The notes below the pieces were generated by a model, which was given only the letters and a program-made list of their open reading frames with translations, was not told the DNA's origin and did not search any database. Source: Dehalococcoidia bacterium (lineage in GTDB: Bacteria > Chloroflexota > Dehalococcoidia > UBA2979). Taken from it: a DNA stretch of 64,000 nt. Position 1 is the stretch's first letter. Each line of letters starts with the position of its first letter. Both the position numbers and the translations under genes were made by a program. Location of the stretch: positions 71,360-135,359 of the forward strand of contig DASCQM010000003.1 of the NCBI GenBank assembly GCA_036013055.1, read 5' to 3'. Below, in pieces: positions 1 to 15,150 of this stretch.

Positions 1-149
1 TCGCCTCGACTGCGTCCCAGCAGGTCGCAGAGCGCGTCGTTGACCAGAATGAAACTACCCTGATCGTCACGGACGAGGATCCCGGTCTGCAGCTTCTCGA
101 GTACGCCTCGGAGCGCGACGTCGACCGACGCCTCGTGGACTAGCGACAT
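1..149 (-). CDS. PAS-domain protein, N-terminal fragment (gene continues past the left edge)
   Basis: Not in the ORF track because it is too short in-window. Minus-strand ATG at 149-147 with GGGGGTG 4 nt upstream. Translation MSLVHEASVDVALRGVLEKLQTGILVRDDQGSFILVNDALCDLLGRSRG fits the PAS N-terminal pattern (L..L..GI.V.D..G.I...N.A...LLG). The competing plus-frame reading (ends TAG 141-143) is not protein-like. Confidence 0.45.
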   Translation of the reverse strand, partial: MSLVHEASVDVALRGVLEKLQTGILVRDDQGSFILVNDALCDLLGRSRG

Positions 150-442
150 CTAGCACCCCCGCAGCGCAGATTCGTGCATCGACTTCGACGCCAAGTATGC
201 GAGCGAGAAGGACAAGAGACCTTGCGAATGTCCTGACGATGTGCTGACTGGCCAGTCGCTACGCTACTGGCCTCCGAGTGGACGCGAAGGCATCGCCTCC
301 GGCACCGAGCACGCTGCGAAGGGCGAGCTCGACCAGGTGCCATCGGTCACCAGTACTCGACGCCATCGCTGCCGCCACGGAAGATCGTGCAAGCGCCAGA
401 ATAGCGGTGCTCCCATCCCCGTCGCGGCGGAGGAAATCCGTG

Positions 443-2575
443 ATGAGCCGTCTCACGTCGTCACCTGTAGGAGCGCCGAGTGTCTCAGTAGCGGCAATGG
501 CGGGCCTTGCCGTGATTCTTGTGCTGGCGATGGCCGCGACAGGCAGTGGCCGCGCGAGCGCAGAGGTGCCCGCCGCGGCGTTCAGTGGCTCCGTGCCGCA
601 GCGGGGCGGGGCTGCCCTGCTGGTAGCCGGCGAGAACGCGACCCCAGAGGCGTTGGTCTCCGCGCTCCAGTCTGGAGGATGCGATCCCATCGCTCTGGCC
701 GTCGGCGCGGGCGGAGAGTGGAAGATGTACGTCCCCGGAGCACCGCCGGTGGTGAACGCGGACTTCCCAGCGACGATCGAGCCGTCGAGCCCGTTCACCG
801 CGCGCTGCGAAGCAGTTGCTGAGTCTGCACTCGACATCGCAGGCGTCACGATCACGGTCGACGGATTCACCTTCACACTTGAGAACGGCCGCGACGAACA
901 GCCGATTGTCCCGGGGGCTGCGACCGTGGCGGTCGCGCAGCTCGCCGGATATAACGCGTACGGGGACCTCGACGGCGACGGGCTGACCGACGCCGCATTC
1001 ATCTTGATCAGCAGCCCGGGCGGCAGCGGTACGTTCTCCTACGTCTCGGCGCTCACCGCGGATGGGGTCGTGCTTGACCCGATCCTGCTGGGCGACCGAA
1101 TTAGCGTGAGAAGGATCGAGATCGTCGCGGGCGAGGTACGGATCGCGTATTTGACCCGCCGCGGAGACGAGCCCCTCGCAACTGCACCAACGGTGCCCAC
1201 CGACCGATCACTCGTGAGAGACGTGGGAGCACTCGTTCCTGTCGGATGCGCGACTCAGTCGGCCGGTGGGGCGAACTCATTGGTCTCCGTCACGTCCCCA
1301 GCGTCGGGAGCATTGTTCCCGAGCGGTTCGACGGTTGAGGGCTGCTCGCGCACGTTCGAATCGACGGTGAACTGGGAGCTGTACGACCGGGCCGGCGTCC
1401 GACTCGCGAGCGGGTTCGCGAGCGGGGGCGGCGTCGACGGTCGCGCACCATTCTCGATCTTCGTCAGCTACACGGTCGCTGACGAGCAAGTAGGGCGGCT
1501 TGAGCTGTTCGCGGTCGATGTCTCAGGCGGCGAAGGCTTCCCGCCGCCGCGCGACGTGGTGCCGGTCGTTCTGACTCCCGGACCCGACGTCGTGCAGCTC
1601 GCAGCGAGCTCGTGGCGAATGACCACGATTTCCGGTGCGGCCGTCCTCGCCGGGACAGAGGTCACTGCCGAGTTTCTAGCTGGCACCGTCTCGGGTTCCA
1701 GCGGGTGCAACAGCTACACGGGCAGCTACGAGGCGGCCGGCGGAATGCTGGTGTTCCCCTCACCGTTTGCGGCCACGAAGATGGCGTGCGAGCAGGCGGT
1801 CATGGACCAGGAGCAGGCTTTCCTCGCCGCGCTGACAGGGGCCACCAGCTTCTCCATCGACGGTGATGCGCTGACGATCCAGACTGCCGCCGGCGAAGTC
1901 GTGTTCACCGCGGTTACCCCGCTGACGCAGAGCGAATGGATGCTTACGTCCCTTGCAGGCGCGAATCCTGTCTCTGGAACGACGGTCACCGCGAACTTCG
2001 CTGCCGGTGCCGCCAACGGATCGTCCGGATGCAACAGCTACGCTAGCGGATACGAGGTGAACGGTAGCGTGCTCAACTTCCCGTCGCCGTTCGTGGTCAC
2101 GGCGATGGCCTGTGAGCAGGCGGTTATGGACCAGGAGCAAGCCTTCCTTACTGCCCTGGCCGGTGCCACTAGCTTCTCCATCAGCGGCGACGCACTGACG
2201 ATCCAGACCGCCACTGGCGAACTGATCTTCGGTGCGATTTCCCCGCTGACACAGAATGGGTGGACGCTTACCTCGCTGGTGGGTACGAGCCTCGTCTCCG
2301 GGACGACGGTCACCGCGAACTTCGCTGCAGGCGCTGTCACCGGATCGTCCGGATGCAATAGCTACGCCAGCGGATACGAGGTGTCGGGCAGCACTCTGGA
2401 CTTCCCGTCGCCGTTTGCCGTCACGGCAATGGCCTGCGTACAGGCGGTCATGGACCAGGAACAGACCTACCTCTCCGCGCTGGCAGGAGCCACCACCGTC
2501 GTCGTCGACGGCGGAACGCTGACGATCGAGGGCGCGACCGGCGAGCTGGTGTTCGTAAAGGATGACGGCTCCTGA
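443..2575 (+). CDS. exported multidomain protein: hydrophobic leader, Gmad2-like Ig domain, three tandem META (HslJ-like) domains
   Basis: ORF-track 278..2575. I prefer ATG 443 (or adjacent in-frame GTG 440), with GGAGG at 429-433. This start gives MSRLTSS..AGLAVILVLAMAATGSG. FESTVNWELYDRAGVRLASGF..PFSIFVSY resembles a Gmad2 Ig-like domain. Three repeats carry the META signature GSSGCNSY.G.Y......L.F.SPF..T.MAC.QAVMDQEQ..L.AL. Confidence 0.8.
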   Translation: MSRLTSSPVGAPSVSVAAMAGLAVILVLAMAATGSGRASAEVPAAAFSGSVPQRGGAALLVAGENATPEALVSALQSGGCDPIALAVGAGGEWKMYVPGAPPVVNADFPATIEPSSPFTARCEAVAESALDIAGVTITVDGFTFTLENGRDEQPIVPGAATVAVAQLAGYNAYGDLDGDGLTDAAFILISSPGGSGTFSYVSALTADGVVLDPILLGDRISVRRIEIVAGEVRIAYLTRRGDEPLATAPTVPTDRSLVRDVGALVPVGCATQSAGGANSLVSVTSPASGALFPSGSTVEGCSRTFESTVNWELYDRAGVRLASGFASGGGVDGRAPFSIFVSYTVADEQVGRLELFAVDVSGGEGFPPPRDVVPVVLTPGPDVVQLAASSWRMTTISGAAVLAGTEVTAEFLAGTVSGSSGCNSYTGSYEAAGGMLVFPSPFAATKMACEQAVMDQEQAFLAALTGATSFSIDGDALTIQTAAGEVVFTAVTPLTQSEWMLTSLAGANPVSGTTVTANFAAGAANGSSGCNSYASGYEVNGSVLNFPSPFVVTAMACEQAVMDQEQAFLTALAGATSFSISGDALTIQTATGELIFGAISPLTQNGWTLTSLVGTSLVSGTTVTANFAAGAVTGSSGCNSYASGYEVSGSTLDFPSPFAVTAMACVQAVMDQEQTYLSALAGATTVVVDGGTLTIEGATGELVFVKDDGS
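1613..2575 (+). repeat. three tandem ~324-bp coding repeats (one META domain each)
   Basis: Repeat units start at the TGG codons 1613, 1937 and 2261 (W-x-[TL]-T-S/I). Units 2 and 3 are near-identical over long nucleotide stretches (e.g. acggtcaccgcgaacttcgctgc...ggatcgtccggatgcaa.agctacgc.agcggatacgaggtg). Confidence 0.85.
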
Positions 2576-2984
2576 GCGCAGTCGACGCACCCTGCCGCTG
2601 CCGCTCCAGCTCGTCATAGAACTTCGCCAACACAGGACGCGGCAACGAGAAGAACGACCGCAGGCTGGGCCTGCGTGGGAGTCCGATGTCTGGGGCGGGC
2701 TCGTCTTCGCAAGTGAGCGCGGTGGCCCGCTGCATGGCACGTCAGTCAGCAAGAGGTTCCGCTCACTCCTGTCAGCAGCCGGTATCCCGACTATGCGATA
2801 CCATCACCTGCGGCACGGCGCAGCTTCGCTTATGGCCGCCCAAGGCGTTCCGCCTCGTGTCGCGATGGAGGTACTCGGACACGCTCAAATCAGCACGACG
2901 ATGAACGTCTATAGCCACGTGACGGACGAGTCACAGCGCGACGCGATAGATCGACTGAGCAGTGCAATTTGGGACGCCTCGTGA
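2562..2984 (+). pseudogene. tyrosine recombinase (phage-type integrase) C-terminal remnant
   Basis: The 140-aa ORF holds only the distal catalytic part (YHHLRHGAASL...LGHAQISTTMNVYSHV with the catalytic Tyr). The N-terminal SAM-like domain and the box I Arg region are missing. The ORF overlaps the end of the META gene and lies 92 nt upstream of tRNA-Thr. Confidence 0.7.
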
Positions 2985-2988
2985 CCGC

Positions 2989-3012
2989 GTTGCTGTCAAA
3001 GTTGCTGTCAAA
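2989..3012 (+). repeat. perfect 12-bp tandem direct repeat GTTGCTGTCAAA x2
   Basis: Read directly at 2989-3000 and 3001-3012, between the integrase remnant stop (2982-2984) and tRNA-Thr. Confidence 0.9.
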
Positions 3013-3076
3013 GGCACTTCTGACCGCCGGCGAGGTGATGAAGGTACCGTCGATTCGAGTCTAAAATCGCTGCGAC

Positions 3077-3151
3077 GCCGGTGTAGCTCAGAGGTAGAGC
3101 AGCTGTTTCGTAAACAGCAGGTCGAGGGTTCGAATCCCCCCGCCGGCTCCA
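3077..3151 (+). tRNA. tRNA-Thr (anticodon CGT), CCA encoded
   Basis: Manual cloverleaf:
- acceptor GCCGGTG / CGCCGGC (one G-U pair)
- D arm GCTC-AGAGGTA-GAGC
- anticodon stem GCTGT / ACAGC, loop TTCGTAA (anticodon CGT at 3109-3111)
- variable loop AGGTC
- T arm GAGGG-TTCGAAT-CCCCC (one A-C mismatch)
- discriminator T, then CCA. Confidence 0.9.
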
Positions 3152-3264
3152 TTCAGTCCACTTGTCAGACAGTCGACCATCCAGGCAGACCGTCCGCTCA
3201 CTGACCATCCGCAGCGAGGCCACCCACGAGGCGGCCCACGATCGAGACAGGGCACCTTCCGCCA

Positions 3265-3999
3265 ATGAGCAAGCTCCGCGAACGCCTCCGCAACACGTCC
3301 AGTCGCCAGCGCGGCAGCATGGGCTTCGCACCCAGCAGCTCCGCGGTCGACAACAGTCACGTGCTCGTGATCGCCGAGGTCGCCGACGTCGCAGCCGCAT
3401 CAGCCGCGATCGAAGCCGGCGCGGGCGCGCTGCTCTTCACCGGCGACGCCGCCTCAGCTGGCGCGATCGTCGAGGCCGCGGGTGAGACGCCCGTCGGCAT
3501 CCGCCTCGAAGGCGCGACCGCCGACGAGACGAAGGCGGTTGCCGAGGCGAAGGGCGACTTCCTGCTGTTCGACGACGGAGCGACCGCCGCGGACGCGCTG
3601 CTCGAGCGCAGCCTCGGCAGGGTATTGACGCTCGAAGATGACGCGGACGAAAAGCGGCTACGGATGATCGCGCCGTTGCGACTGGATGCGATTCTGCTCG
3701 GCGCGCACAACACCACGATGACGGTCCGCGAGCAACTCGCGATGCGTCGCATCGTCGAACTGACGCGCTCACCGCTCGTGATCGCGGTGGCAAGCGCCGT
3801 CTCCGCCACAACGCTCGAGGTCTGGCGCGATGCCGGCGCGCCTGCTGTCCTCGCCACGGACGCGGCGGCGCTCTCAGACGTCGTCGCTGCCGCCCGCGAA
3901 GTTGCCGCGCCGCACCAGCGCGAAGACGACGAGCGGCGTGACCCGCTGCTCCCATCGCTGACTGCGGGCCACGATCACGACGACGACGATCTCGACTAG
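3265..3999 (+). CDS. hypothetical protein (Ala/Asp-rich, acidic C-terminus)
   Basis: 244-aa ORF with high third-position GC. Competing antisense ORFs are Arg/Pro-rich shadows. No motif I can name. Confidence 0.55.
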   Translation: MSKLRERLRNTSSRQRGSMGFAPSSSAVDNSHVLVIAEVADVAAASAAIEAGAGALLFTGDAASAGAIVEAAGETPVGIRLEGATADETKAVAEAKGDFLLFDDGATAADALLERSLGRVLTLEDDADEKRLRMIAPLRLDAILLGAHNTTMTVREQLAMRRIVELTRSPLVIAVASAVSATTLEVWRDAGAPAVLATDAAALSDVVAAAREVAAPHQREDDERRDPLLPSLTAGHDHDDDDLD

Positions 4000-4034
4000 A
4001 CAAACCGAAATCTGACGAATTTGCAGGCTCGTTG

Positions 4035-4064
4035 CTTGACGGTTCGAGTCGCTGATTCCTACGA
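4035..4064 (+). promoter_or_regulatory. candidate sigma-70-type promoter TTGACG-18 nt-TACGAT for the MerR gene (leaderless transcript predicted)
   Basis: TTGACG at 4035-4040, 18-nt spacer, TACGAT at 4059-4064. The ATG at 4072 lies 7 nt after the -10 and has no SD. Confidence 0.35.
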
Positions 4065-4071
4065 TCGCGTC

Positions 4072-4587
4072 ATGACGCGAGAGGCGACACCCCCCACAAC
4101 CGTCGACGTCGACGACGCCGCCGCCGACCGCGATACGGCCCGCTACCAGATTGGCGAGGTTGCGGAGCGCACTGGCGTCACCCAGCGCACGCTCCGATTC
4201 TACGAAGAGAAGAAGCTACTCAGCCCGGCCGAGCGGATGGAGGGCGGCTTCCGTCTCTACTCCGATCAGGACATCGAGCACATTGAGCTGATCAAGCGGC
4301 TTCAGAACCTGCTCAACCTCTCGCTTGCCGAGATCAAGGAGATGGTCGACGCCGAGGCGCTGCTCAAGCAGATGCGCTCAACGTTCCGCCCCGACCGCGA
4401 CCTGCCCGAACGCAAGCAGCGCACGACGCAGATCAAGACCGCGCTCCAACTCCAGAGCGAGATCGTGGATCGCAAGATGGAGCAACTCCAGGAGATGCGC
4501 GATGAGCTGCGGGAACGCCTCGACGTGGTCGCACGTCGCGTTGGCGAGATCGACGAAGCGCTGAAGAACGAGGCCAGCGCCGACTAG
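4072..4587 (+). CDS. MerR-family transcriptional regulator
   Basis: N-terminal HTH YQIGEVAERTGVTQRTLRFYEEKKLLSP..R...G.RLYSDQDIEHIELIKRLQ, then a long coiled-coil. The start was moved from the track TTG 4021 to ATG 4072. Confidence 0.85.
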   Translation: MTREATPPTTVDVDDAAADRDTARYQIGEVAERTGVTQRTLRFYEEKKLLSPAERMEGGFRLYSDQDIEHIELIKRLQNLLNLSLAEIKEMVDAEALLKQMRSTFRPDRDLPERKQRTTQIKTALQLQSEIVDRKMEQLQEMRDELRERLDVVARRVGEIDEALKNEASAD

Positions 4588-4613
4588 CTTCGCTCACCTC
4601 CCACAGAACAAGA

Positions 4614-4637
4614 AACGGCGGCCCAAAGGCCGCCGTT
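4614..4637. terminator. bidirectional intrinsic terminator hairpin between the convergent MerR and peroxiredoxin genes
   Basis: AACGGCGGCC-CAAA-GGCCGCCGTT forms a 10-bp perfect stem. On the minus strand it is followed by TTCTTGTTCTGTGG, and on the plus strand by CTGATTATC. Confidence 0.6.
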
Positions 4638-4662
4638 CTGATTATCTCCGACTCACAGCCGT

Positions 4663-5121
4663 CTACTTGCCAGCCAGCTCCTTCACCGCCACCAGCGCAC
4701 CGTCCGGATGCGCCTGCATGTCGCGCGGATCATCGACGATCGCACGAACGACACCGTCCGCATCGAAGATGTACGTCGTGCGCACCGCGAGCGGTTGCCC
4801 CTCTCGGCGCACATCGAAAGCATCGATCGTCTCGTACTTCGGCCAGTCGGAGAGCAGCGGGAAGGCGATGTCGTGCTTCTCGGCGAATCCGCCGTTTGCT
4901 GCGTGTGTATCTGCGCTGACACCCACCACGTGGGCGCCCAGTGCTTCCAGCTCCTCGTGGATCGCCTGGAAGCCGTTCATTTCATTCGTTCAGCCGCCGG
5001 TGAACGCCATCGGATAGAACGCCATGATGGCGATCGACCCGTCAAACATCTCCTGCGTCACCTCTTCACGCTGCGTGTTTCGCAACGTGAAATCGGGCAT
5101 CTTTGCGCCGATCTCTAGCAT
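4663..5121 (-). CDS. AhpE-like 1-Cys peroxiredoxin with in-frame TGA (4990..4992) at the peroxidatic Cys position; probable selenocysteine
   Basis: The track ORF 4663..4980 extends in frame to ATG 5121 (GGGGAGGGG about 9 nt upstream). Translation: MLEIGAKMPDFTLRNTQREEVTQEMFDGSIAIMAFYPMAFTGG[TGA]TNEMNGFQAIHEELEALGAHVVGVS... The total is 152 codons plus stop, with a single internal TGA at the Prx active-site Cys column. A hairpin follows 16 nt downstream. Confidence 0.75.
4943..4973 (-). promoter_or_regulatory. SECIS-like recoding hairpin
   Basis: On the mRNA: UGA, 16 nt, then GCUUCCAG-(GCGAUCCACGAGGAG)-CUGGAAGC. This is a perfect 8-bp stem, and the loop can form a further UCC/GGA mini-stem. 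Confidence 0.55.
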
Positions 5122-5186
5122 CCGGGAACCCCTCCCCTTCGGATCTCTGTTGCTGGACTCTGTCTTGCAAACCCCGTCCTACGAAC

Positions 5187-5444
5187 TCAGTCGTGCGACT
5201 CGCCGTGGTCGTCAGCATCGGGCTTCTGGAAGTCCCAATTCAGGCCGCGCTCATGCCGGTAGAGGTACGCGATCGAGCTGAGAAGGAGCAACGCCCCTGC
5301 GCCGAGCGCAGCGTAGAACGCCACCGACCAGAATTCACCAGCAGCCTCCAGTGAGCGATCATGCTCCTGGGCGATCGCCAGTGCGGGTACCAGCGCGTAC
5401 GCGCTCCCCGCCACCATCGCCGTCAGTCGTGTCAGACGCTTCAC
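5187..5444 (-). CDS. small exported/membrane protein (signal peptide plus C-terminal TM helix)
   Basis: Lies inside track ORF 5187..5504. GTG 5444 is preceded by GAAGGAGGAG with a 7-nt spacer. Translation (V)KRLTRLTAMVAGSAYALVPALAIA-QEH... has a Sec-type leader, then FWSVAFYAALGAGALLLLSSIAYLY as a TM helix. It sits 65 nt upstream of the peroxiredoxin on the same strand. Confidence 0.6.
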   Translation of the reverse strand: MKRLTRLTAMVAGSAYALVPALAIAQEHDRSLEAAGEFWSVAFYAALGAGALLLLSSIAYLYRHERGLNWDFQKPDADDHGESHD

Positions 5445-5544
5445 CGCTGCTCTCCTCCTTCGAATCAGAATTGCAGACCGCAGTGTACCCCCGCACCGAT
5501 CCATGCGGCACCCGAGCGATCGATGGAGGCGCTACCCTGCCCGC

Positions 5545-7773
5545 ATGCGGGGGTTCGCTCGGGGTCTCACCCTCCAGCTGGCGCTGCTGCTCGCGCTGCT
5601 GGCAACCGCGCTGCTGCATACCTCCGCGACCCGAGCCACCGCCCAGCAGCCGGATGCCGCCGCACTACTGCGCGATGCCCGCGCCACGCTCGACGTCGGG
5701 CGCAACGACGAGGCCGCCTCGCTCTTCCTCGACCTGCTCACGACTACCGAGCCGCAGTTTCGAGCCGAGGCGTGGAGTGGACTGATCCGCTCGCGCGCGG
5801 CGAGTCGCCGCAACGGCGAGGCGGCAACGCTCGCGACCGCGCTACTCCGCCACCGCGCTCCGACCCTCGCCGGCGACGCCGAACGCGCCTCCTACCTGCT
5901 CGGTCGCTCCTCCTTCGACGCCGGCGACTTCGACACGGCCGCGCTCGCTCTCCGTCGCGTCGAGGCTGGCGGCGGGGCGCTCCCGACCGTCGCGCGGCTG
6001 CGGCTCGCTCAGGCTCTCGCCGCACCCGTCGACGGCCACCGCCGCGACGTCGAGGCGGTGGCGGCGTTCCGCGCGGCGGCTGCCGATGCCGCGACGCCGG
6101 ACGACCTGCGGCTCGTCGCGCTACACGAGAGCGTCAGTGCCCTGCTTCGCCTCACACGCAGCGATGAAGCGCTCGCGGCGCTCGCCGATATCGCGCGGGA
6201 CCCCGCAGCGAGCGCGGCAGAGATAGCGTCTGCTCGCTGGCTGGCCGCCACGTCCCGTCGTGAGGCGGGCGACGCGAGCTGGCAGGACGACGCTGCGGCT
6301 GTCCTCGCGACCTCGCCGGGTGCGCCTGAAGCCCTGCCCGCGCTCGAAGCCCTGATCGAGGCCGAAAGCCCGCCGCCACTGCTCGAGTCCGGGTACGTCT
6401 ACTACCGCTCACGCGAGAACGACCGCGCCCGCGCCGAGTACCTTGCAGCCCTCGATGCCGGCCTCGCAGCCAGCTCGCAGGCCTCCGCGTGGTTCTTCCT
6501 CGCAGCACTTGCCGAACGCGACGGGGACGAGGCTCTGGCAATCGACTACTACACGCGCTCGCTTGAGGCACACATCAGCTTCTCGGCGAGCGGCCTGACC
6601 GACGACGCGCTGTGGTGGCGCGGCCTGCTCTACGAAGCTGTCGGCCGCTACGGAGATGCCTCCGACGACTATCGTCGACTGGCGGTCGACTTCCCCGTCT
6701 CGACCTTTGCCGTCCGCGCCTCGCTCCGCGATCCGTTCGTCCTCGCGCGTGGCGGCAACATCGATGCCGCGACCGCGCGCCTGCGACGTCTCACCGAGAG
6801 CGCACCCTCCCCGACCGCCGACCGCGCTGCCGTCTGGCTCGCGGAGCTCGCCGGCGAACCGCTCGCTCTTGCCGGTCTCGACCCGCGATCGATCGACGTG
6901 CTGCTCGCTGGCAGCGATGACGCAACGAACCTACTCCCGGCGCGCGCGATCGACGAGTGGGGCGTCGAACCCTCCGACGAGCAAGCGGTCCGGCTCTGGG
7001 TCGCCGAGACGCTCGGCATCCGCGCCGCCGGTACGCCCCTCATCAGCGATGACCCGCGCCTCGCCGTCGCGCTGGCACTCGTCGACGTCGGCGAGCGCGA
7101 CCTCGCGCGATCGACCCTGCTCGCGCTGCGACGCGACATCCTGCACGACCCACACTCGCTGATCGATCTCGCGCTGGTGGCGGTGGAGGCCGGGCTGACC
7201 GACATCGCCTCGCTCGCCGCGATCAGCGTGCTCGCGCGCATGGAGCCGGAGCAGCGGCTGGCGACACCGCTGGCCGTCGAGCGGCTCACCTACCCGCTTG
7301 CCTACGGAGACGTCACGCGCGAGATCGCGACGAACGAAGGCGTCCCGCCGCTGCTATTGCTGGCGCTCGTGCGTCAGGAATCGGCGTACAACCCGCTCGC
7401 GGTCTCATTCGCCGACGCTCGCGGGCTGACGCAGGTGATCCCGCCGACCGGTGCGCTAATCGCGTCTTCGCTCGGTGTGCCATGGGAGCTCGCAAGCCTC
7501 TTCAATGCGGAGACCTCGCTGCGCTTCGGAGCGACTTACCTCGGCGACCAGCTCGAGCGTTTCGACGGCAATATCTTCGCCGCGCTCGCCGCCTACAACG
7601 GCGGGCCGGTCAACGCCGAACGCTGGCTCGACGACCAGTGGTGGCCGGGTGCAGCGGGCTACATCGCGGCCATCGACTTCACCGAGACACGCGGATACGT
7701 CGAGTCGGTGATCGAGCAGTACGCGTGGTACCGCTACCTTTACGCCGGTGCGCCGGCGCCATCGATCCGCTAG
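5545..7773 (+). CDS. lytic transglycosylase (SLT domain) with long TPR-like N-terminal region
   Basis: C-terminal SLT motifs: [42 protein letters not shown] 5545 gives the [24 protein letters not shown] leader. The track start at 5503 is also possible. Confidence 0.85.
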
Positions 7774-7861
7774 CGAACGTCCTCGGCCGCAACACGCCGC
7801 TTCGTGCTGCGACGCTCCCCGTCCCGCTGCCGTGCCACCGGCTGTCACCGCAGCCCCCCGA

Positions 7862-7891
7862 TTGCTCCTGCGCGCCGGCGCTCCGTATACT
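7862..7891 (+). promoter_or_regulatory. candidate rpmH promoter TTGCTC-18 nt-TATACT
   Basis: TTGCTC at 7862-7867 and TATACT at 7886-7891. The SD GAAGGAA lies at 7904-7910. Confidence 0.45.
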
Positions 7892-7916
7892 CGATCGGCA
7901 ATCGAAGGAACCTCAG

Positions 7917-8054
7917 GTGCCTAAACGAACCTGGCAGCCCAAGCGTGTCCCGCGAAAGCGGAAGCACGGCTTCCGCGCGCGCATGTCGACGCGCAATGGT
8001 CGCCACGTCATTCAGCGCCGCCGTCAGCGCGGCCGCCGCGTCCTGTCCGTCTAG
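7917..8054 (+). CDS. rpmH: 50S ribosomal protein L34
   Basis: A GTG start gives (M)[44 protein letters not shown], the canonical L34 sequence. It is hidden inside the longer spurious ORF 7482..8054. Confidence 0.95.
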
Positions 8055-8120
8055 CCACACCCACCGCCCCACCACCAACCGGAGGCCCCAAGTGAGCGTG
8101 ACTGCGGGAGACGCAGCGCC

Positions 8121-8474
8121 ATGATGGCCGTCGTACGTAGCGCCAATCCGCGCCTCAGCCGCCGCTCAGACTTCACGACGGTGATGCGTCACGGTCGACG
8201 TTCTCGCAGCCGTCTGCTTCGCCTTGCCGCGCATGAGAACGGTCTCCACCGCAATCGTTATGGCTTCGCCATCAGCCGTCGCGTCGGCAACGCGGTCGTA
8301 CGCAACAAGGCCCGACGTCGGCTACGCGCGATCATTCGCCAGACTGCGCTCACGCCGGGCAACGACATCGTGATCACGGCCGATCCGCTTGTGGAAAATG
8401 CAAGCTATCAAGAGCTCACGGCTGCATTCGAGACTATTGCTCGCAAGCTGTCGCTGATTGATGGCTCTCAATGA
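8121..8474 (+). CDS. rnpA: ribonuclease P protein component
   Basis: Follows rpmH. Basic 117-aa protein with the RNR-type motif (NAVVRNKARRRLRAI). Confidence 0.9.
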   Translation: MMAVVRSANPRLSRRSDFTTVMRHGRRSRSRLLRLAAHENGLHRNRYGFAISRRVGNAVVRNKARRRLRAIIRQTALTPGNDIVITADPLVENASYQELTAAFETIARKLSLIDGSQ

Positions 8475-8520
8475 GCGTTGTTACTACTAACCACCTGTCA
8501 CTGGCTGTAGAAGACGTTCG

Positions 8521-8847
8521 ATGCTGAGACGCGCTGCCCTCGCAGCAATCCGCCTCTACCAGCGATCGGTCTCGCCATCGCTCGGCACGAACTGCCGCTA
8601 CGAGCCGACGTGCTCCGCCTACACATACGAGGCCGTTGAGCGCCACGGTGCGGTCCGCGGCACCTGGATGGGCATTCGCCGCATCGCACGCTGCCGGCCC
8701 GGCCGAGCCGGTGGTTACGACCCGGTCGTCGTCGAATCTGAGTTAGGTTCACCAGCAACAGCGGAATCAGACGCCGTCGATGCTGCGATGCAGCACTCCC
8801 ACGCACACGCTCGTCCCCCCGCGGGCGCGACAGAAAGGCGAGCATAA
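8521..8847 (+). CDS. yidD: membrane protein insertion efficiency factor YidD (extended C-terminus)
   Basis: AAIRLYQRSVSP.LG..CRYEPTCSAYTYEAVERHG...G.W.G.RRI.RC.P is the YidD signature. Confidence 0.85.
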   Translation: MLRRAALAAIRLYQRSVSPSLGTNCRYEPTCSAYTYEAVERHGAVRGTWMGIRRIARCRPGRAGGYDPVVVESELGSPATAESDAVDAAMQHSHAHARPPAGATERRA

Positions 8848-8867
8848 GACAATCGTGAAATCCCTTA

Positions 8868-8883
8868 TGTTTCACGTGTGACA
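8868..8883. promoter_or_regulatory. parS-like site TGTTTCACGTGTGACA (14/16 to the TGTTTCACGTGAAACA consensus)
   Basis: Read directly in the AT-rich yidD-propeller spacer, about 4.9 kb upstream of parB. It overlaps a second inverted repeat, CGTGAAA-N9-TTTCACG (8854..8876). Confidence 0.6.
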
Positions 8884-8892
8884 CCCCTAACC

Positions 8893-10068
8893 ATGCGACG
8901 ATCCACCCTCGATTCCCTGCCAGCGCCACGTCTGACGCGATCGCGACGCTGGCTCCTTCCCGCCTTGCTCGTGCTCGCCCTTTTCGCTACCGGGTGCGCG
9001 CGGATCGCGGAGGCCAGTGGCTGGTCCAGTCCGGCCTACGACGGCGACATCCTCGTCACGCAGTCCGACGAGGGCGTCATTTCAGCCTTTCAGGTTGCCG
9101 ATCCCACGATCCCGCTCAACCCCGCCGCTCCGCTCTGGACGTATCCAACCCACAACAGCGCCGATGACGACATCGGTTTCGACACGATCTACGCAACGCC
9201 GATCATCGAGGGCAACACGGTCTACGTCGCCGGCTACAGCGGCACGGTCGTCGCTCTCGCCCTCAGCGGAGACACTGCCGGCCGGCCACTGCCCGCGTGG
9301 GGCGGCCCGATCGAGCTCGACGAGCGCATCGTCGCTACCCCGGCGTTGCACGACGGCGTGCTGTACGTGGCAACCGAGGAAGGCAACCTGCACTCGCTGG
9401 CTACAGCCTCAGGCGCAGCGGTCACGGCCCCGATCGTCGTCGGCGGCCGCCTCTGGACCCAGCCACACATCGATGGTGGTCGCATCTACCTCGGCAGCAT
9501 CGACGATTCATTGATCGCGCTCGATCTCACAGGCGGTGCCACCGCCTGGAGGCGGGACATCGGCAGCATCGCCGGCGACGCGTTCGCCGACAGCAGCCTG
9601 CTGTACATGCCATCGCTCGATGGCCGCATTCATGCGCTGGACCTCGCTGCTGGCGGGGCTGAGCGCTGGCCGGAAGGCGCTGGTGGCGGTTCTGGGTGGT
9701 TCTGGGGCCGTCCACTGCTGCAAGGTAGTGTTCTCTATGCCATTGCTGTCGATGGCACTGCGTACGCCTTCAATGCAACGACAGGCGCAGAACAGTGGCG
9801 TTCGCAACCGCCGGACGGCGACGAGGTTCGCGCAGCGCCGATCGTCGTCGCCGGCGTGCTGCTCGTCGCCACTCGCGATGGTGATATCCGCGGCATCAAC
9901 GCGAGCAACGGAGCCGAACTCTGGGTCCACTCCGTGGACGGGGAGCGCTTCTACGCCGACCCGATCCAGATCGACTCCAACATCATCATCTACGCCGACA
10001 ACGACGGTGGTCTCTGGCAGGTGAATCCCGCCACCGGCACCGTCCGTGTCTACCTCGAACGCGACTAG
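8893..10068 (+). CDS. PQQ-like (BamB-type) beta-propeller repeat lipoprotein
   Basis: Lipobox LALFATGC after a basic leader. Repeated motifs of the type G.(V/L)Y(V/A)....G.(L/V).A(L/F)D..(T/G)G...W are typical of PQQ-like propellers. Confidence 0.8.
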   Translation: MRRSTLDSLPAPRLTRSRRWLLPALLVLALFATGCARIAEASGWSSPAYDGDILVTQSDEGVISAFQVADPTIPLNPAAPLWTYPTHNSADDDIGFDTIYATPIIEGNTVYVAGYSGTVVALALSGDTAGRPLPAWGGPIELDERIVATPALHDGVLYVATEEGNLHSLATASGAAVTAPIVVGGRLWTQPHIDGGRIYLGSIDDSLIALDLTGGATAWRRDIGSIAGDAFADSSLLYMPSLDGRIHALDLAAGGAERWPEGAGGGSGWFWGRPLLQGSVLYAIAVDGTAYAFNATTGAEQWRSQPPDGDEVRAAPIVVAGVLLVATRDGDIRGINASNGAELWVHSVDGERFYADPIQIDSNIIIYADNDGGLWQVNPATGTVRVYLERD

Positions 10069-10089
10069 CAGAGGCTTCCAGGAGCTCCC

Positions 10090-11106
10090 ATGCCTATCGG
10101 CTTCATCTGGCAGACGTTCCTCGAGACGCCCCTGATCAACTTCATGATCCTGCTCACCGTCGGCGCGTTCAGCTCCTTCGGGTTCGCCATCCTCGCCTTC
10201 ACGCTCATCACACGTGTTATTACTTTCCCACTGACGATGCGCACGATGCGGTCGACTCGCGCAATGCAGGAACTGCAGCCTCAGATTCAGGAACTGCAGA
10301 AGAAGTACTCCGACCCTCGCCGCCGCTCCGAGGAGACGATGAAGCTCTACAAGGAATCCGGCGTAAACCCTCTCGGCTGTCTCGGCTCTCAGATCATCCA
10401 GTTCCCGCTCTTCATCGCGATGTACCAGGTGATCCGCACGACGCTCGCCAACTCACCCGAGGGCGTCCTCTACCTGGAAAGCAGGCTCTACGACATCGAC
10501 TCCATGTTCGGCGCCCGCTTCATGCATGACGCGCTGCCGCTGAACACGGACTTCTTCTTCATGGACCTCACCGCCTCGGGTACGAACGTCACCAGCATCA
10601 CGCTGATGCTGCTCGTCTTCGCGTCGATGTGGTTGCAGCAGCGGATCTCCGTCTCGCGCACCTCAGCGACCGGCAATCAGAGCGACCAACAGCAACAGAT
10701 GAGCCAGATGATGCAGTGGATGATGCCGATCATGTTCGCGGCATTTGTGATCGCAGTTCCGGCGGGACTGGGCCTCTACTGGACAGCCACGACCGTGATT
10801 GGGATTATCCTGCACTGGACGTTCCTAGGCCCGGGTGACTTCACCTGGGGCTCACTGATTCCAGAACAGCTTCAATCCCGCATCACACCTGCCGCAGGAA
10901 CAGCACTGACCACGACCGAATCCGACACCCAGCCCGGCGATTCTTCCGACGATGACGACGAGGACGCCAGTACCGAGATAGGGACCAACGATGGCGAACG
11001 AAGTAGAAACCAGCGGACCAGACGTCGACGCAGCGGTCGCCAGGGCTCTCAGTCAACTCGGCCTCAATCGCGATCAAGTCGACGTCGACGTCGTCCGCGA
11101 AGGTAG
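10090..11106 (+). CDS. yidC: membrane protein insertase YidC (short monoderm type) with Arg-rich C-terminal tail
   Basis: FAILAFTLITRVITFPLT..........MQELQP.IQELQKKY..D......E.MKLYKE.GVNPLGC is YidC/Oxa1 core. Tail: ...RNQRTRRRRSGRQGSQSTRPQSRSSRRRRRPRR. Confidence 0.9.
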   Translation: MPIGFIWQTFLETPLINFMILLTVGAFSSFGFAILAFTLITRVITFPLTMRTMRSTRAMQELQPQIQELQKKYSDPRRRSEETMKLYKESGVNPLGCLGSQIIQFPLFIAMYQVIRTTLANSPEGVLYLESRLYDIDSMFGARFMHDALPLNTDFFFMDLTASGTNVTSITLMLLVFASMWLQQRISVSRTSATGNQSDQQQQMSQMMQWMMPIMFAAFVIAVPAGLGLYWTATTVIGIILHWTFLGPGDFTWGSLIPEQLQSRITPAAGTALTTTESDTQPGDSSDDDDEDASTEIGTNDGERSRNQRTRRRRSGRQGSQSTRPQSRSSRRRRRPRR

Positions 11107-12016
11107 GAAGGGCGGCTTCCTCGGCATCGGTGCCGAAGCCGCAATCGTCCGCGTCGCCGAGAAGGCTGGTGCCGCGTCGTCTGACGGTGACCGCGACGGC
11201 CAGAGTGACGGCGACGGCGAACGATCATCAGACGGCGATGGCGACGGTGAGCGATCGTCCGAGGGCGGCGGACGTCGTCGACGCGGCGGGCGCGGCCGTG
11301 GCGGTCGCGGACGGGGACGCGGCAATCGCGGTGGCTCCGGCGACGGCGGCTCGGGCGATAGTGACAGCGACGGCCGAAGCGACAGTCGAGGCGACGAGCC
11401 ACGTCGAGAGCAGCGCGAGCGGCGACCACGTCGCGAATCCGCGCCGTACACGGCAGCCGAAGAGCCGATGCTGGTGCCCGGCGCGCCCGACGAGCTTCCC
11501 TCGGCACCCCCGGCCGACGCCGAAGACGAGATGGACTTCGCGGGGCACACCCTGCGCGACTTGCTGAACTTCTTCGGCCTCGAGGAGACCGAGATCAGCG
11601 GCCGCGACCCCGAGACCGCCGGCGATGGCGTCGGGCTGATGACGCAGGTCTTCGACATCTACGGCGAGACAGACGACGCCTCCGACGAGCTTGGCCTCCT
11701 GATCGGCCGCCGCGGCGAGACGCTGCAGGCACTCCAGTACCTGCTGAACGTGATGGTCTCCAGCCGCTACGATGGCGACCACGTGTTTGCCGTCGACGTC
11801 GAAGGCTATCGTCGGCGTCGTGAGAACACCTTGCAGGACCTCGCCGAGCGGGTTGCCAGCGAGGTGATCGACACCGGTGACGTGATCACGCTTGAGCCGA
11901 TGCCCGCCGCGGAGCGCCGCATCATCCACCTCACGCTCGAGGCGATGGATGGTGTCACCACCGAGAGCGTCGGGTCCGGCAACAACCGGCAGGTCGAGGT
12001 GCTTCCCGGAGAGTAG
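10991..12016 (+). CDS. jag: RNA-binding protein Jag/KhpB (Jag-N, KH, R3H) with RGG/acidic low-complexity insert
   Basis: N-terminal Jag_N pattern (DVDAAVARALSQLGLNRDQVDVDVVREGRKGGFLGIG). C-terminal KH/R3H region (LLIGRRGETLQALQYLLN...EPMPAAERRIIHLTL). Conserved position after yidC. Confidence 0.85.
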   Translation: MANEVETSGPDVDAAVARALSQLGLNRDQVDVDVVREGRKGGFLGIGAEAAIVRVAEKAGAASSDGDRDGQSDGDGERSSDGDGDGERSSEGGGRRRRGGRGRGGRGRGRGNRGGSGDGGSGDSDSDGRSDSRGDEPRREQRERRPRRESAPYTAAEEPMLVPGAPDELPSAPPADAEDEMDFAGHTLRDLLNFFGLEETEISGRDPETAGDGVGLMTQVFDIYGETDDASDELGLLIGRRGETLQALQYLLNVMVSSRYDGDHVFAVDVEGYRRRRENTLQDLAERVASEVIDTGDVITLEPMPAAERRIIHLTLEAMDGVTTESVGSGNNRQVEVLPGE

Positions 12017-12087
12017 TCACGAGACACCCCGGGGCCCGCGATCGGGTCACTCACTCCCCGTAGATTCCGTGAGGTCGGGAGAGACGC

Positions 12088-12942
12088 ATGCCTCCCTCTC
12101 CGCCGAAGATGCTCGCGATCGGTCCGTTCGCCACTGACGTGATCGGTGCCGAACGACGTCCAGGAGGCGCGGTCTCATACACGGCTCGCGCAGCACACTC
12201 GTTCGGAACACGGCTCGCGATCCTCACGATCGGCGACCCGGACTCGCTTCCGCCCGCCTTCGATGGCCACGACGTCACCGTCGTGCCGGACGCCACACTG
12301 ACGTTCAGCCACGCCACCCGAGGCAACGACCGCGAGCTGACCGTGGCGAGCCAACCCTCGCGAGCGCTGCTGGCGTCCGACCTTCCGCAGGGATGGGCGC
12401 AGGCGGAGACCGTGATGTTGATGCCGCTCGTGCCACAGGACGACTGCGCATCCTTCGCGGGCATCCCAAGCGACGGCCAGCGAGCGCTGGTAGGGCAGGG
12501 GCTTCAGCGCGCGCTCACATCTTCCTCACGTATTGTCGAGCGTTCACGACCATCTACCGACCTCATTCGAGCTTTTTCCACCACTACCACGCTATTTCTT
12601 TCGGAACAGGAGACGTCTGGCTGGACGTATGAAGAGATGACGCTAGCGATCGGTCGTAACGCTCGCGTCGTGATCACGCGTGGCGCAGCCGGTGCCGACA
12701 TCTACGGCGCGGGCCACGACCCGATCCACATCGACGTCACGCTCGCCGAGCCGGTCGATACGAACGGCGCCGGCGACGTCTTCGCCACCGCCTTCATGCT
12801 CGCGCTCGCGCGTGGCGACGACGACGAGACCGCCGGCCGGCTGGCGAGCGCGTACGCCGCCGCCTGTGTCGAGGTCGTCGGTCCGGCGGAGCTGCCACCG
12901 CTCGCCGCGATCGAGGCGAGGATCGGTGCGACCAGCTCATGA
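12088..12942 (+). CDS. PfkB-family carbohydrate/nucleoside kinase
   Basis: C-terminal PfkB signature DTNGAGDVFATAF plus an N-terminal GG.....A motif. ATGA overlap with parA. Confidence 0.8.
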   Translation: MPPSPPKMLAIGPFATDVIGAERRPGGAVSYTARAAHSFGTRLAILTIGDPDSLPPAFDGHDVTVVPDATLTFSHATRGNDRELTVASQPSRALLASDLPQGWAQAETVMLMPLVPQDDCASFAGIPSDGQRALVGQGLQRALTSSSRIVERSRPSTDLIRAFSTTTTLFLSEQETSGWTYEEMTLAIGRNARVVITRGAAGADIYGAGHDPIHIDVTLAEPVDTNGAGDVFATAFMLALARGDDDETAGRLASAYAAACVEVVGPAELPPLAAIEARIGATSS

Positions 12943-13784
12943 CCTACATCTTCGCGATCACGAACCAGAAGGGCGGCGTCGGCAAGACCACCACGACGGT
13001 TTCGCTCGGTGCCGCGCTAGCCGAGCGCGGCTACCGGGTACTGATCGTCGATGCCGACCCGCAGGCCAACGCCACCTCCGCGGCGGGCACCGTCGACGCA
13101 GCGCCGCGCCCCGGCGACGGCACGCGCGACGGGATGGACGGGATGTACGAAGCGCTCGTCGATGAGCGTCCGCTCGCGGAGCTCGTCGTCGAGACCGTCA
13201 CCGCCGGGCTGCGGGTCGTGCCGAGCACGCCCGATCTTGCCGGTGCGGAGGTGGAGCTCACCTCCGTGCTCGCCCGCGAGTACCGGTTGAAGAAGCTGCT
13301 GGAGCCGGTGCGCGTCGACTATGACTTCATCCTGATCGACTGTCCGCCCTCGCTCGGCCTGCTCACCGTGAACGCGCTCGCCGCCGCAGACGAGGTGATC
13401 ATCCCGGTGCAGACGGAGTACCTCGCACTCGAAGGGCTCGGCCACCTCTCGCAGACGATCGAATTGATCCGGGGCAGTATCAACCCGAGCCTGCGTCTGC
13501 GCGGTATCGTGCTCACGATGTTTGACGCACGCACCAACCTGGCGAAGGAAGTCGAAGCTGAGGTGCGGCAGCACTTCGACAACACATTCCACGCGGTCAT
13601 CCCCCGCTCTGTGCGGCTCTCCGAGGCTCCGAGCCACGGCAAGCCGATCCAGAGTTACGACCCACTCTCTGCAGGGGCCCGTGCTTACGAGGCACTGGCT
13701 GACGAGCTCCTGGAGCAGCTAGAGATGTCGCCGAACGGCGGCAGCACTGGCGACACGACAGGAGGCAACCATGGCACGCAGTAG
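12939..13784 (+). CDS. parA: chromosome partitioning ATPase ParA/Soj
   Basis: Deviant Walker A: IFAITNQKGGVGKTTTTVSLGAALA. Also VLIVDADPQANAT. Confidence 0.9.
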   Translation: MTYIFAITNQKGGVGKTTTTVSLGAALAERGYRVLIVDADPQANATSAAGTVDAAPRPGDGTRDGMDGMYEALVDERPLAELVVETVTAGLRVVPSTPDLAGAEVELTSVLAREYRLKKLLEPVRVDYDFILIDCPPSLGLLTVNALAAADEVIIPVQTEYLALEGLGHLSQTIELIRGSINPSLRLRGIVLTMFDARTNLAKEVEAEVRQHFDNTFHAVIPRSVRLSEAPSHGKPIQSYDPLSAGARAYEALADELLEQLEMSPNGGSTGDTTGGNHGTQ

Positions 13785-14646
13785 CGGACTCGGACGGGGA
13801 CTCTCGGCGCTGATCCCGGACGGGCCACCGCGCGACGAGCGCATCCCGGTGAGCGAGGTCGAGGTCTCGCTGGTCACACCGAACCCGGAGCAGCCGCGTA
13901 CGTCGATCGACACGGTCGACATCGAGTCGCTCACGGCGTCGGTGAAGGAGCACGGGATCATCCAGCCGCTGCTCGTCTCGGAAGCGACGGGAGAGAGCGG
14001 CGAGACGGTCTACCAGCTGATTGCGGGGGAGCGTCGGCTGCGCGCCGCACGCGCCGCCGGGCTGACGCATGTCCCGGTCACGATCCGCCAGAGCACGCCG
14101 CAGGAGCTGCTGGAGCTGGCGCTGATCGAGAACGTCCAGCGGCTCGACCTCAACGCGCTCGAAGAGGCGCTCGCGTACCGCCGGCTGATCGAGGAGTTCG
14201 CACTCACTCAGCAAGCGGTCTCGGACCGCGTCGGTAAGTCGCGTACGGCGATCGCGAACACGCTACGGCTGCTCGACCTCAGTGAGGACGAGAAGGCGTC
14301 GCTGACGTCCGGCGAGGTGACCGAGGGGCACGCACGCGCCCTGCTCGGGGTCACCGACGGAACGCAGCGCTGGGAAGCGTGGCAGCAGGTCGTCGAACGA
14401 GGCTTGAACGTGCGTCAGACGGAGCGCATCGTACGCGAGTGGCGCAGCGAGGCCCCGGCCAAAGCTGCGGTCGTCGACCCCGTCGACGCGCAGATCGAAG
14501 CCCTGACGGAATCGCTGCGGCGCAGCCTCGGGACCAAGGTCTCCCTGCGTCGGAACAAGCGCGGCGCGGGGAGCATGACGATCCACTTCTATAGCGACGA
14601 AGAGCTGGACGGGCTACTCGACCGGCTGACGCCAGAAGGCGTCTGA
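13771..14646 (+). CDS. parB: chromosome partitioning protein ParB/Spo0J
   Basis: [23 protein letters not shown] (ParB box), and an HTH ([23 protein letters not shown]). Confidence 0.9.
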
Positions 14647-14685
14647 GCGACAGTCTGAACGACAGCGAATCCGAAGAGGACTCCC

Positions 14686-15150
14686 ATGGTTGCTGAACGG
14701 CTGAACGAGCTGGGCATCGAACTGCCCGCCCCGGCGACCCCGATGGCGGTCTACCGGCCCGCGAGGAGCACGGGCAACCTCGTCTACATCTCGGGACAGG
14801 TCGCGGTTCGCGATGGCGAGATCGTGAATGCGGGAACGCTCGGCGACGGCGTGAGCATCGAGCAGGGGCAGGAAGCCGCGCGCGTCGCGGTGATCAACTC
14901 GCTGGCGGCCGCAAACGCGCTCGTCGGCAGCCTCGACGGCCTGCGCGTCGTGCGACTCGTCGGCTACGTCGCATCGACGTCGGACTTCTACGACCAGCCG
15001 GCCGTGATCAACGGCGCGAGCGAACTGCTACGCGACGTCCTCGGCGAAGACGATGGCGTCGGCACCCGGCTCGCGCTGGGGGTGGCGGCGTTGCCATCGA
15101 ACTCGCCGGTCGAGATTGAACTGATCTTCGAGACGATCGAGGGGGCCTGA
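14686..15150 (+). CDS. RidA/YjgF-family protein
   Basis: VYISGQ...........G...EQ...A..N.......G.......V.....Y..........N........G.....R...GVAALP....VEIE is the Rid-family pattern. Confidence 0.8.
   Translation: MVAERLNELGIELPAPATPMAVYRPARSTGNLVYISGQVAVRDGEIVNAGTLGDGVSIEQGQEAARVAVINSLAAANALVGSLDGLRVVRLVGYVASTSDFYDQPAVINGASELLRDVLGEDDGVGTRLALGVAALPSNSPVEIELIFETIEGA

Follow-up and report, generated by a model that had tools for sequence, protein, structure and literature searches.

A UGA codon at the peroxidatic position of a marine Dehalococcoidia peroxiredoxin gene very probably encodes selenocysteine

Does an in-frame UGA in a Dehalococcoidia peroxiredoxin gene end translation, or is it read as selenocysteine (Sec)? 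The question is raised by a 64,000-nucleotide stretch of contig DASCQM010000003.1 (positions 71,360 to 135,359, assembly GCA_036013055.1), which we analysed as a whole and call the window. Its minus strand carries a gene for a peroxiredoxin of the AhpC/TSA fold, here Prx, that public gene calls break in two at a single TGA. An initial annotation, made from the letters of the window, had proposed that the two pieces are one selenoprotein gene with a hairpin resembling a selenocysteine insertion sequence (SECIS) just past the UGA. Comparing the gene with its relatives, we find that Prx is almost certainly a real selenoprotein gene, and that the UGA at codon 44 very likely encodes selenocysteine. 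Because the hairpin is weak in a single sequence, the case rests on comparative evidence.

Prx lies in one open frame at window positions 5121..4663 on the minus strand, from an ATG (5121..5119) to a TAG (4665..4663), with 152 sense codons. The sole internal stop is the TGA at 4992..4990 (-), codon 44, with the surrounding residues ...AIMAFYPMAFTGG-TGA-TNEMNGF. A Shine-Dalgarno-like AAGGGGAGGGG at 5139..5129 (-) stands 7 nt before the ATG, and the N-terminus reads MLEIG, MLEVG or MLQVG in all Prx homologues. The mechanical open reading frame (ORF) list represents the gene by 4663..4980 (-) alone, a product of 105 aa. Everything that the initial annotation had said of the truncated ORF, the upstream start with its ribosome-binding site, the 152-codon length and the lone TGA was borne out in the sequence. 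The same truncation recurs in public records. GenBank entry HJM88462.1, from an NCBI third-party-annotation (TPA) metagenome-assembled genome (MAG) labelled Dehalococcoidia bacterium and lying on a 162-kb contig, is the 105-aa C-terminal piece (4663..4980) under the name 'redoxin domain-containing protein'. Likewise, wherever a locus bears the TGA, JGI and ENA gene calls give two products, of 43 aa and 105 aa. These GenBank, JGI and ENA listings are a systematic mis-annotation of the whole Prx subfamily.

With Cys put in place of the stop, the translated frame matches the Pfam family AhpC-TSA (PF00578) over residues 4-127, at 114.6 bits against a cutoff of 26 (E = 3.5e-33), and the match spans the TGA. 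The family profile sets residue 44 against the peroxidatic Cys in 2ywn and against Cys45 of M. tuberculosis AhpE, which places the TGA in the peroxidatic-Cys column of the PxxxTxxC motif, where it had been claimed to fall. P37, C/U44 and R114 never vary across 13 Sec and Cys homologues, and T41 does so once, to Ser. Neither the window protein nor most of its Sec relatives (36 of 41 Sec forms) contain any Cys at all, and by these features Prx is predicted to be a 1-Cys-type ('1-Sec') peroxiredoxin. Lacking a resolving Cys, it must be recycled by an external reductant. In the initial comparison with 1-Cys AhpE-type enzymes, the 1-Cys part stood up; the AhpE part did less well, with Bcp-type structures 3hjp (99.3 bits, 1.7e-27) and 2ywn (97.7 bits, 5.4e-27) scoring slightly above AhpE 1xxu (89.3 bits, 2.1e-24) in the structure profile. 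No NCBIfam model reached its cutoff for Prx: the best match, Bcp (NF006960, thioredoxin-dependent thiol peroxidase), gave 67.3 bits against a cutoff of 140, and the PrxU model NF040737 gave 43.5 bits against an equivalog cutoff of 270. 'AhpE/Bcp-like' is the finest assignment that these predictions allow.

The distribution of the TGA across relatives carries most of the argument. A protein search returned full-length Cys-containing relatives at 50-60% identity, together with five distinct clusters of short proteins (105-106 aa) whose match is limited to the C-terminal 69% of the query. Behind all five clusters the DNA has the same layout (43-aa ORF, TGA, two codons, 105-aa ORF), which is likewise present in two genomes from GTDB, one a Dehalococcoidia MAG and the other a Chloroflexi MAG. 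Scanning metagenomes with the family alignment contributed 80 further loci. Tabulating the catalytic column over all loci gave 52 TGA, 31 TGC and 4 TGT codons. Loci at least 43% identical to the window protein are all TGA except a few Cys forms, and the TGA-column loci span 43-100% identity; the TGC and TGT codons belong to relatives that are more distant or nested. Sec/Cys pairs are recognised by this pattern, a UGA at a redox-active position where homologues have a Cys codon (PMC1088965).

The TGA-bearing genes behave as intact genes. Zero other disruptions were found among 43 distinct TGA-bearing orthologues, in which synonymous differences are near saturation (pS ~0.62) and the median dN/dS is 0.22 over the 43 codons before the TGA and 0.31 over the 100 codons after it. 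Purifying selection acts on both halves of the frame. At least 23 contigs, assembled independently, encode precisely the window product, in every case split as 43 + 105 aa; the TGA was identical in 5/5 of those checked at the DNA level, and one scaffold matches window positions 1-14980 at 100%. Since TGA also ends 18 of the 62 genes called heuristically in the window, and serves as the final stop in six TGA-form Prx genes, it is not reassigned globally, and this stop-codon usage rules out genetic codes 4 and 25. Together, the 52-locus TGA column, the dN/dS values, the independent assemblies and the stop usage rule out sequencing error, pseudogene decay and a variant genetic code, the first two of which the initial annotation had named as findings that would overturn it.

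We also placed 77 family members in a neighbour-joining tree, built without support values. Within the clade, every one of the deepest branches is a Sec form. Cys forms sit among the Sec forms at about four separate places, and some of these Cys forms carry additional Cys residues at positions 80 and 125. As a lead only, this topology suggests that Sec may be ancestral in the clade and that Sec-to-Cys reversion occurred repeatedly, in about four independent events.

What, then, would allow this UGA to be decoded? The proposed 8-bp stem is present as described: GCUUCCAG (4973..4966) is perfectly complementary to CUGGAAGC (4950..4943), 15 nt lie between the octamers, and the stem begins 16 nt after the UGA. 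Within it, an inner UCC/GGA ministem closes an ACGA loop. Such structures arise readily in DNA of this composition (67.8% GC), with a perfect hairpin of at least 8 bp starting 12-25 nt after 1.2% of arbitrary sites and, at the same distance, after 17 of the 1,478 TGA triplets in the window. The hairpin in the window sequence is by itself weak evidence, and its significance comes from the relatives. We therefore compared two codon-anchored ungapped alignments, one of 34 distinct main-clade TGA genes (A3) and one of 31 Cys-codon genes (A4).

Across the TGA genes, the hairpin, which we call H1, has a family-wide footprint in which nucleotides +15..+27 pair with +53..+41, counted from the U of the UGA (window 4939..4977, minus strand). 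H1 positions are paired in 86.0% of cells in A3, and shifting the register by 1-3 nt lowers this to 27-59%. Of the 13 pairs, six have changed on both sides, and doubly changed cells number 29, compared with 10.7 +/- 2.4 in column shuffles, none of which (0/500) reached 29. Compensatory forms include GGC...GCC, GGA...UCC, GCG...CGC and GGG...CCC, as well as CUUCCAG/CUGGAAG versus CUUUCAG/CUGAAGG. RNAalifold predicts the same helix from the alignment alone. The conservation of the hairpin that was asked of the TGA orthologues holds across the 34 distinct genes. The corresponding columns in the Cys set are 54.6% paired, with two core pairs broken in at least 28 of 31 sequences, and three of the four Cys lineages nested in the Sec clade have lost H1 (4/13, 6/13 and 7-8/13 pairs). 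Divergent TGA subgroups (L046-48, L050-52 and L054) do not share the register and have strong hairpins of their own 14-17 nt after the UGA.

A second hairpin, H2 (GCCCAC-GUG-GUGGGU; window 4921..4935, minus strand), follows H1 by 3 nt at +57..+71 from the U of the UGA, columns 67-81 of A3. RNAalifold finds it without prior input. It is paired in 98.5% of cells in the 34 TGA genes, compared with 35-59% in slid registers, and pair 71-77 alternates between G-C, G-U and A-U with zero mismatches, coupling Arg/Ala, Arg/Val and His/Val codons. Divergent TGA subgroups keep H2 with other sequences. In the Cys genes it is only 54% paired, and in all four nested Cys lineages it is degraded to 2-4 of 6 pairs.

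How well does H1 fit the known bacterial SECIS (bSECIS)? Published criteria (PMC13188914 Fig. 2) ask for 3-9 nt in the apical loop and 4-16 bp in the upper stem, with a G at one of the loop's first two positions; the apical loop should lie 16-37 nt from the UGA, and the minimum free energy (MFE) should not exceed -7.5 kcal/mol. The spacing, stem length and energy of H1 satisfy these criteria; between the UGA and its apical loop there are 24-33 nt, a distance inside the bacterial range, as the initial annotation had proposed.

Several observations nevertheless weigh against selenocysteine insertion, and we set them out together. The 71-nt region containing the hairpin (4925-4995, minus strand) does not fold better than its dinucleotide shuffles (z = 0.01), and its MFE structure has a pairing different from the 8-bp hairpin. 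The best hairpin fold in the window has an ACGA loop with G at the third position, and the fold that brings G into the required loop positions lies 2.2 kcal/mol above the MFE. Across the family, the loop-G rule is satisfied in 22/41 TGA genes and in 10/31 Cys genes. One nested Cys lineage, L100 (protein P0009, a TGT gene at L100:1501-1962), keeps H1 at 12/13 pairs. The Sec-decoding genes selA, selB and selD and a gene for tRNA-Sec are absent from the 64-kb window and from 9.6 kb beyond its left end, the latter covered by a 10-kb piece fetched around the gene at 443..2575. ARAGORN, run on the window and 28 related loci, reported tRNA-Thr(CGU) only and no tRNA-Sec; Pfam searches of about 50 window proteins revealed no SelA, SelB or SelD, and the 28 related loci contain no selA, selB or selD either, nor a further selenoprotein candidate. 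Lastly, scans for other TGA-interrupted frames (two in the window, one in the left flank) gave only Prx and artefacts, namely same-frame adjacent genes, antisense frames and stretches just upstream of true starts.

At 68% GC, folding energy alone is uninformative. The strict bSECIS rule discriminates poorly and was given no weight in either direction; in BSepDB, 12.6% of the bacterial selenoprotein genes on record are without a canonical SECIS (PMC13326102). The weak loop-G fit weakens a textbook-SECIS claim and leaves the Sec-insertion claim intact. An Rfam search gave no match at gathering thresholds across the window; scanning 4850-5050 permissively also produced no relevant match, and Rfam has no curated model for this element. 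The SECIS-like assignment of the initial annotation survives for spacing, stem and energy, and is weak in the shuffling test and in the loop. H1 of L100 contains a paired change, CAG...CUG to AAG...CUU, and H2 of L100 is degraded; this H1 may be a fossil SECIS left after a recent Sec-to-Cys change. The L100 organism is abundant, with P0009 present in 40 index blocks. H1 is strongly tied to the TGA and not perfectly exclusive to it, so that the expectation of a hairpin confined to TGA genes held for its covariation there and its breakage in most Cys genes, and failed for L100.

The missing sel genes, sought over ~74 kb of a multi-megabase genome, are uninformative. At the level of the lineage, published work lends support. 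In 2006 Chloroflexi were already listed as using Sec (PMC1794560), and a study of sponge symbionts, with SAR202 Chloroflexi among its bins, has SelA together with SelB in bins from several phyla (PMC5649159). In BSepDB, a pair of Dehalococcoidia MAGs, one with 49 selenoprotein genes and one with 46, rank in the top ten, among the bacteria richest in selenoproteins (PMC13326102).

Other explanations of the interrupted frame have to account for the same pattern. That a nonsense change of TGC or TGT to TGA, in nature or through an assembly or sequencing error, has struck an ordinary Cys-peroxiredoxin beside a coincidental hairpin is suggested by the single substitution separating these codons, by a fold no better than shuffles, by the 1.2% of arbitrary sites with such hairpins and by the mere fragment listed in GenBank. 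Against it stand the same TGA in 52 loci at 43-100% identity with no further disruption, dN/dS of 0.22 and 0.31 on either side, the identical sequence in at least 23 assemblies and the covarying hairpin. At a pS of ~0.62, moreover, the TGA-bearing relatives are not one clonal sequence. This explanation is effectively refuted, and we consider it vanishingly improbable. Only slightly more room is left for a genuinely split gene, in which translation would stop at the UGA and re-initiate at an ATG (4980) 9 nt downstream, the 43-aa and 105-aa chains forming a non-catalytic or different redoxin. An ATG two codons past the TGA is present in all TGA forms, gene callers yield exactly 43 + 105 aa, and purifying selection on both halves is equally expected from such an arrangement. 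Yet this Met belongs to a family-wide (C/U)TxEM motif that is equally kept in the Cys forms, so it is no dedicated start, and no Shine-Dalgarno-like sequence precedes it. A split would also remove just the catalytic residue while P37, T41 and R114 stay conserved, and would leave unexplained two covarying hairpins that are almost confined to TGA genes. We regard re-initiation as extremely improbable.

Stem-loops past stop codons can stimulate read-through in other systems, and the UGA might accordingly be read as a standard amino acid (Cys, Trp or Gly), through near-cognate or reassigned decoding that needs no Sec machinery, with the structures merely stimulating read-through. Both the failure to find Sec machinery in the sequence available (the window and its 9.6-kb left flank) and the poorly satisfied loop-G rule would fit this view. 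However, TGA is an ordinary terminator here, and its use in 18/62 window genes and six Prx stops excludes global reassignment. The UGA coincides exactly with the redox-active Cys position, where homologues have Cys codons, a pattern that marks Sec/Cys pairs (PMC1088965); heavy use of Sec is documented for Dehalococcoidia (PMC13326102); and the position and geometry of the hairpin fit bSECIS spacing. Insertion of a standard amino acid is highly improbable in our judgement.

Selenocysteine insertion thus remains our preferred reading, and it would work as follows. The gene product would be a 152-residue AhpC/TSA-fold peroxiredoxin whose peroxidatic residue is Sec, from UGA codon 44. H1, beginning 12-16 nt past the UGA inside the coding sequence, would act as a bacterial SECIS and recruit SelB.GTP.Sec-tRNA(Sec) to the ribosome, so that the UGA is read as Sec rather than as a stop. 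The selenolate, seated in a Pro37/Thr41/Arg114 pocket, would reduce peroxides and become a selenenic acid. An external thiol reductant would then regenerate it, since there is no resolving Cys.

H2 stands outside this scheme. It is tempting to regard the recoding signal of the Prx subfamily as a two-hairpin element rather than a canonical bacterial SECIS, with Sec ancestral and about four reversions, although we hold this extended proposal to be unlikely. Under it, H2 may be obligatory and force paired codon choices (Arg/Ala, Arg/Val, His/Val and Gln/Leu). H2 could be a ribosome pause, an enhancer of SelB docking or the mark of a Dehalococcoidia-specific mode of SelB recognition.

The surroundings of Prx are conserved as well. 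The locus sits in the rnpA-yidC-parA-parB region, and Sec and Cys lineages share a synteny of an 85-aa protein gene, Prx and a convergent MerR regulator gene, in agreement with the small upstream protein and converging MerR gene described initially. The 85-aa gene (5187..5444, minus strand) encodes a small membrane or exported protein with a signal-peptide-like N-terminus, one transmembrane helix, an invariant ...LY...R...W.FQ..D motif and an acidic tail rich in His; neither Pfam nor NCBIfam gave a match. The gene lies directly upstream of Prx on the same strand, as do its counterparts at L007:859-1116, L010:1323-1580, L012:9574-9831, L099:1180-1437 and L100:1143-1400. The two genes probably form one transcription unit, and the 85-aa protein may be a functional partner of Prx. 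A strong intrinsic terminator with an 11-bp GC-rich stem and a T-run (4613..4638, minus strand) follows the Prx stop codon after 25 nt. The regulator (4072..4587, plus strand), assigned to MerR by Pfam, is 171 aa long in public gene calls, and its mechanical ORF begins at 4021.

Several further features of the neighbourhood deserve mention. Beside the MerR gene lies a gene (3265..3999, plus strand) for a 244-aa protein that matches nothing in Pfam or NCBIfam, and its position is kept in L012 (245 aa), L099 (247 aa) and L100 (249 aa). A tRNA-Thr(CGU) gene (3077..3151, plus strand) is syntenic near the locus in L001, L002, L003, L012 and L030, and phage-integrase genes or fragments occur nearby in L012 (12659-13839, ~150 nt from the tRNA) and L097 (4623-5045), which suggests that the tRNA-Thr neighbourhood is an integration hot spot. 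On the same scaffold as the window, ~6.1 kb left of its start and ~10 kb from Prx, lies a gene for a 335-aa Pyr_redox_2 flavoprotein (L101:3916-4923) of thioredoxin-reductase-like size and domains; this flavoprotein could be part of the Prx reductant system. Stop-codon usage is itself uncommon. The 62 heuristic genes of the window, at 67.8% GC, end in TAG (40), TGA (18) or TAA (4), and the terminal stops of the Prx family are mostly TAG (61/82). TGA normally prevails as a stop in high-GC bacteria, and such a dominance of TAG is unusual.

These results amount first to an annotation correction for a gene that is widespread in marine Dehalococcoidia, by which a 105-aa 'redoxin domain' fragment and a 43-aa orphan become one 152-aa selenoenzyme. 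The subfamily is captured by no NCBIfam model, so automated pipelines will go on truncating Prx. With the correction, an abundant ocean lineage would gain a 1-Sec AhpE/Bcp-like peroxiredoxin among its known antioxidant enzymes. With 41 distinct TGA genes and close Cys forms nested among them, the family is also a clean natural experiment on how a SECIS constrains coding sequence, and the same alignment shows the decay of SECIS structure that follows Sec-to-Cys replacement. Current understanding is not overturned, the class, the motif and the heavy Sec use of the lineage being already established. The single element outside the standard model is H2; its covariation, together with the weak apical-loop fit, was what we least expected, and the two leave some room, in our view rather little, for a lineage-specific variant of the recoding signal.

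How does Prx compare with known systems? Peroxiredoxin selenoproteins had been put forward initially as an established class, rightly so: Sec-peroxiredoxins with a TxxU motif, of PF00578/COG1225, are known from marine metagenomes, with 43 genes from the Sargasso Sea (PMC1088965) and 253 in the GOS (Global Ocean Sampling) set (PMC2398784). Prx shares with them the fold, Pfam family, (P)xxxTxxU site, UGA at the peroxidatic position, downstream stem-loop and marine origin, and the active sites are close (...FPKAFTGGuT... in the Sargasso genes, ...FYPMAFTGGuT... in the window). In contrast, Prx is just 31% identical to one Sargasso representative, and the YPMAF signature of its subfamily is absent from the Sargasso supplement. 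Two Sargasso sequences have a Cys four residues past the Sec (uTAEC and uTMQC), where the window subfamily has Met and usually no Cys. PrxU of Eubacterium acidaminophilum, the first biochemically shown Sec-peroxiredoxin according to Sohling et al. 2001 as cited in PMC13188914, likewise has a peroxidatic Sec encoded by UGA. Prx scores below its equivalog cutoff, however, and the PrxU model has 233 positions against the 152 aa of the window protein. AhpE (1xxu) and the crenarchaeal Bcp-type proteins 2ywn and 3hjp resemble Prx in size (~150-160 aa) and in an end-to-end alignment of motifs, including the N-terminal ML.vG...PdFtL and FyP.AFTg.C; Prx also resembles AhpE in having no resolving Cys. 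Unlike Prx as we read it, these three proteins use Cys. Compared with the consensus bSECIS of bSECISearch, H1 is similarly a coding-sequence stem-loop right after the UGA, with its apical loop 24-33 nt away, a stem of at least 4 bp and a hairpin energy below -7.5 kcal/mol; it differs in its inconsistent loop G and in the extra conserved H2 3 nt further on, which the model lacks. Prx is an uncurated subfamily and lineage member of a long-known and abundant class of bacterial selenoproteins.

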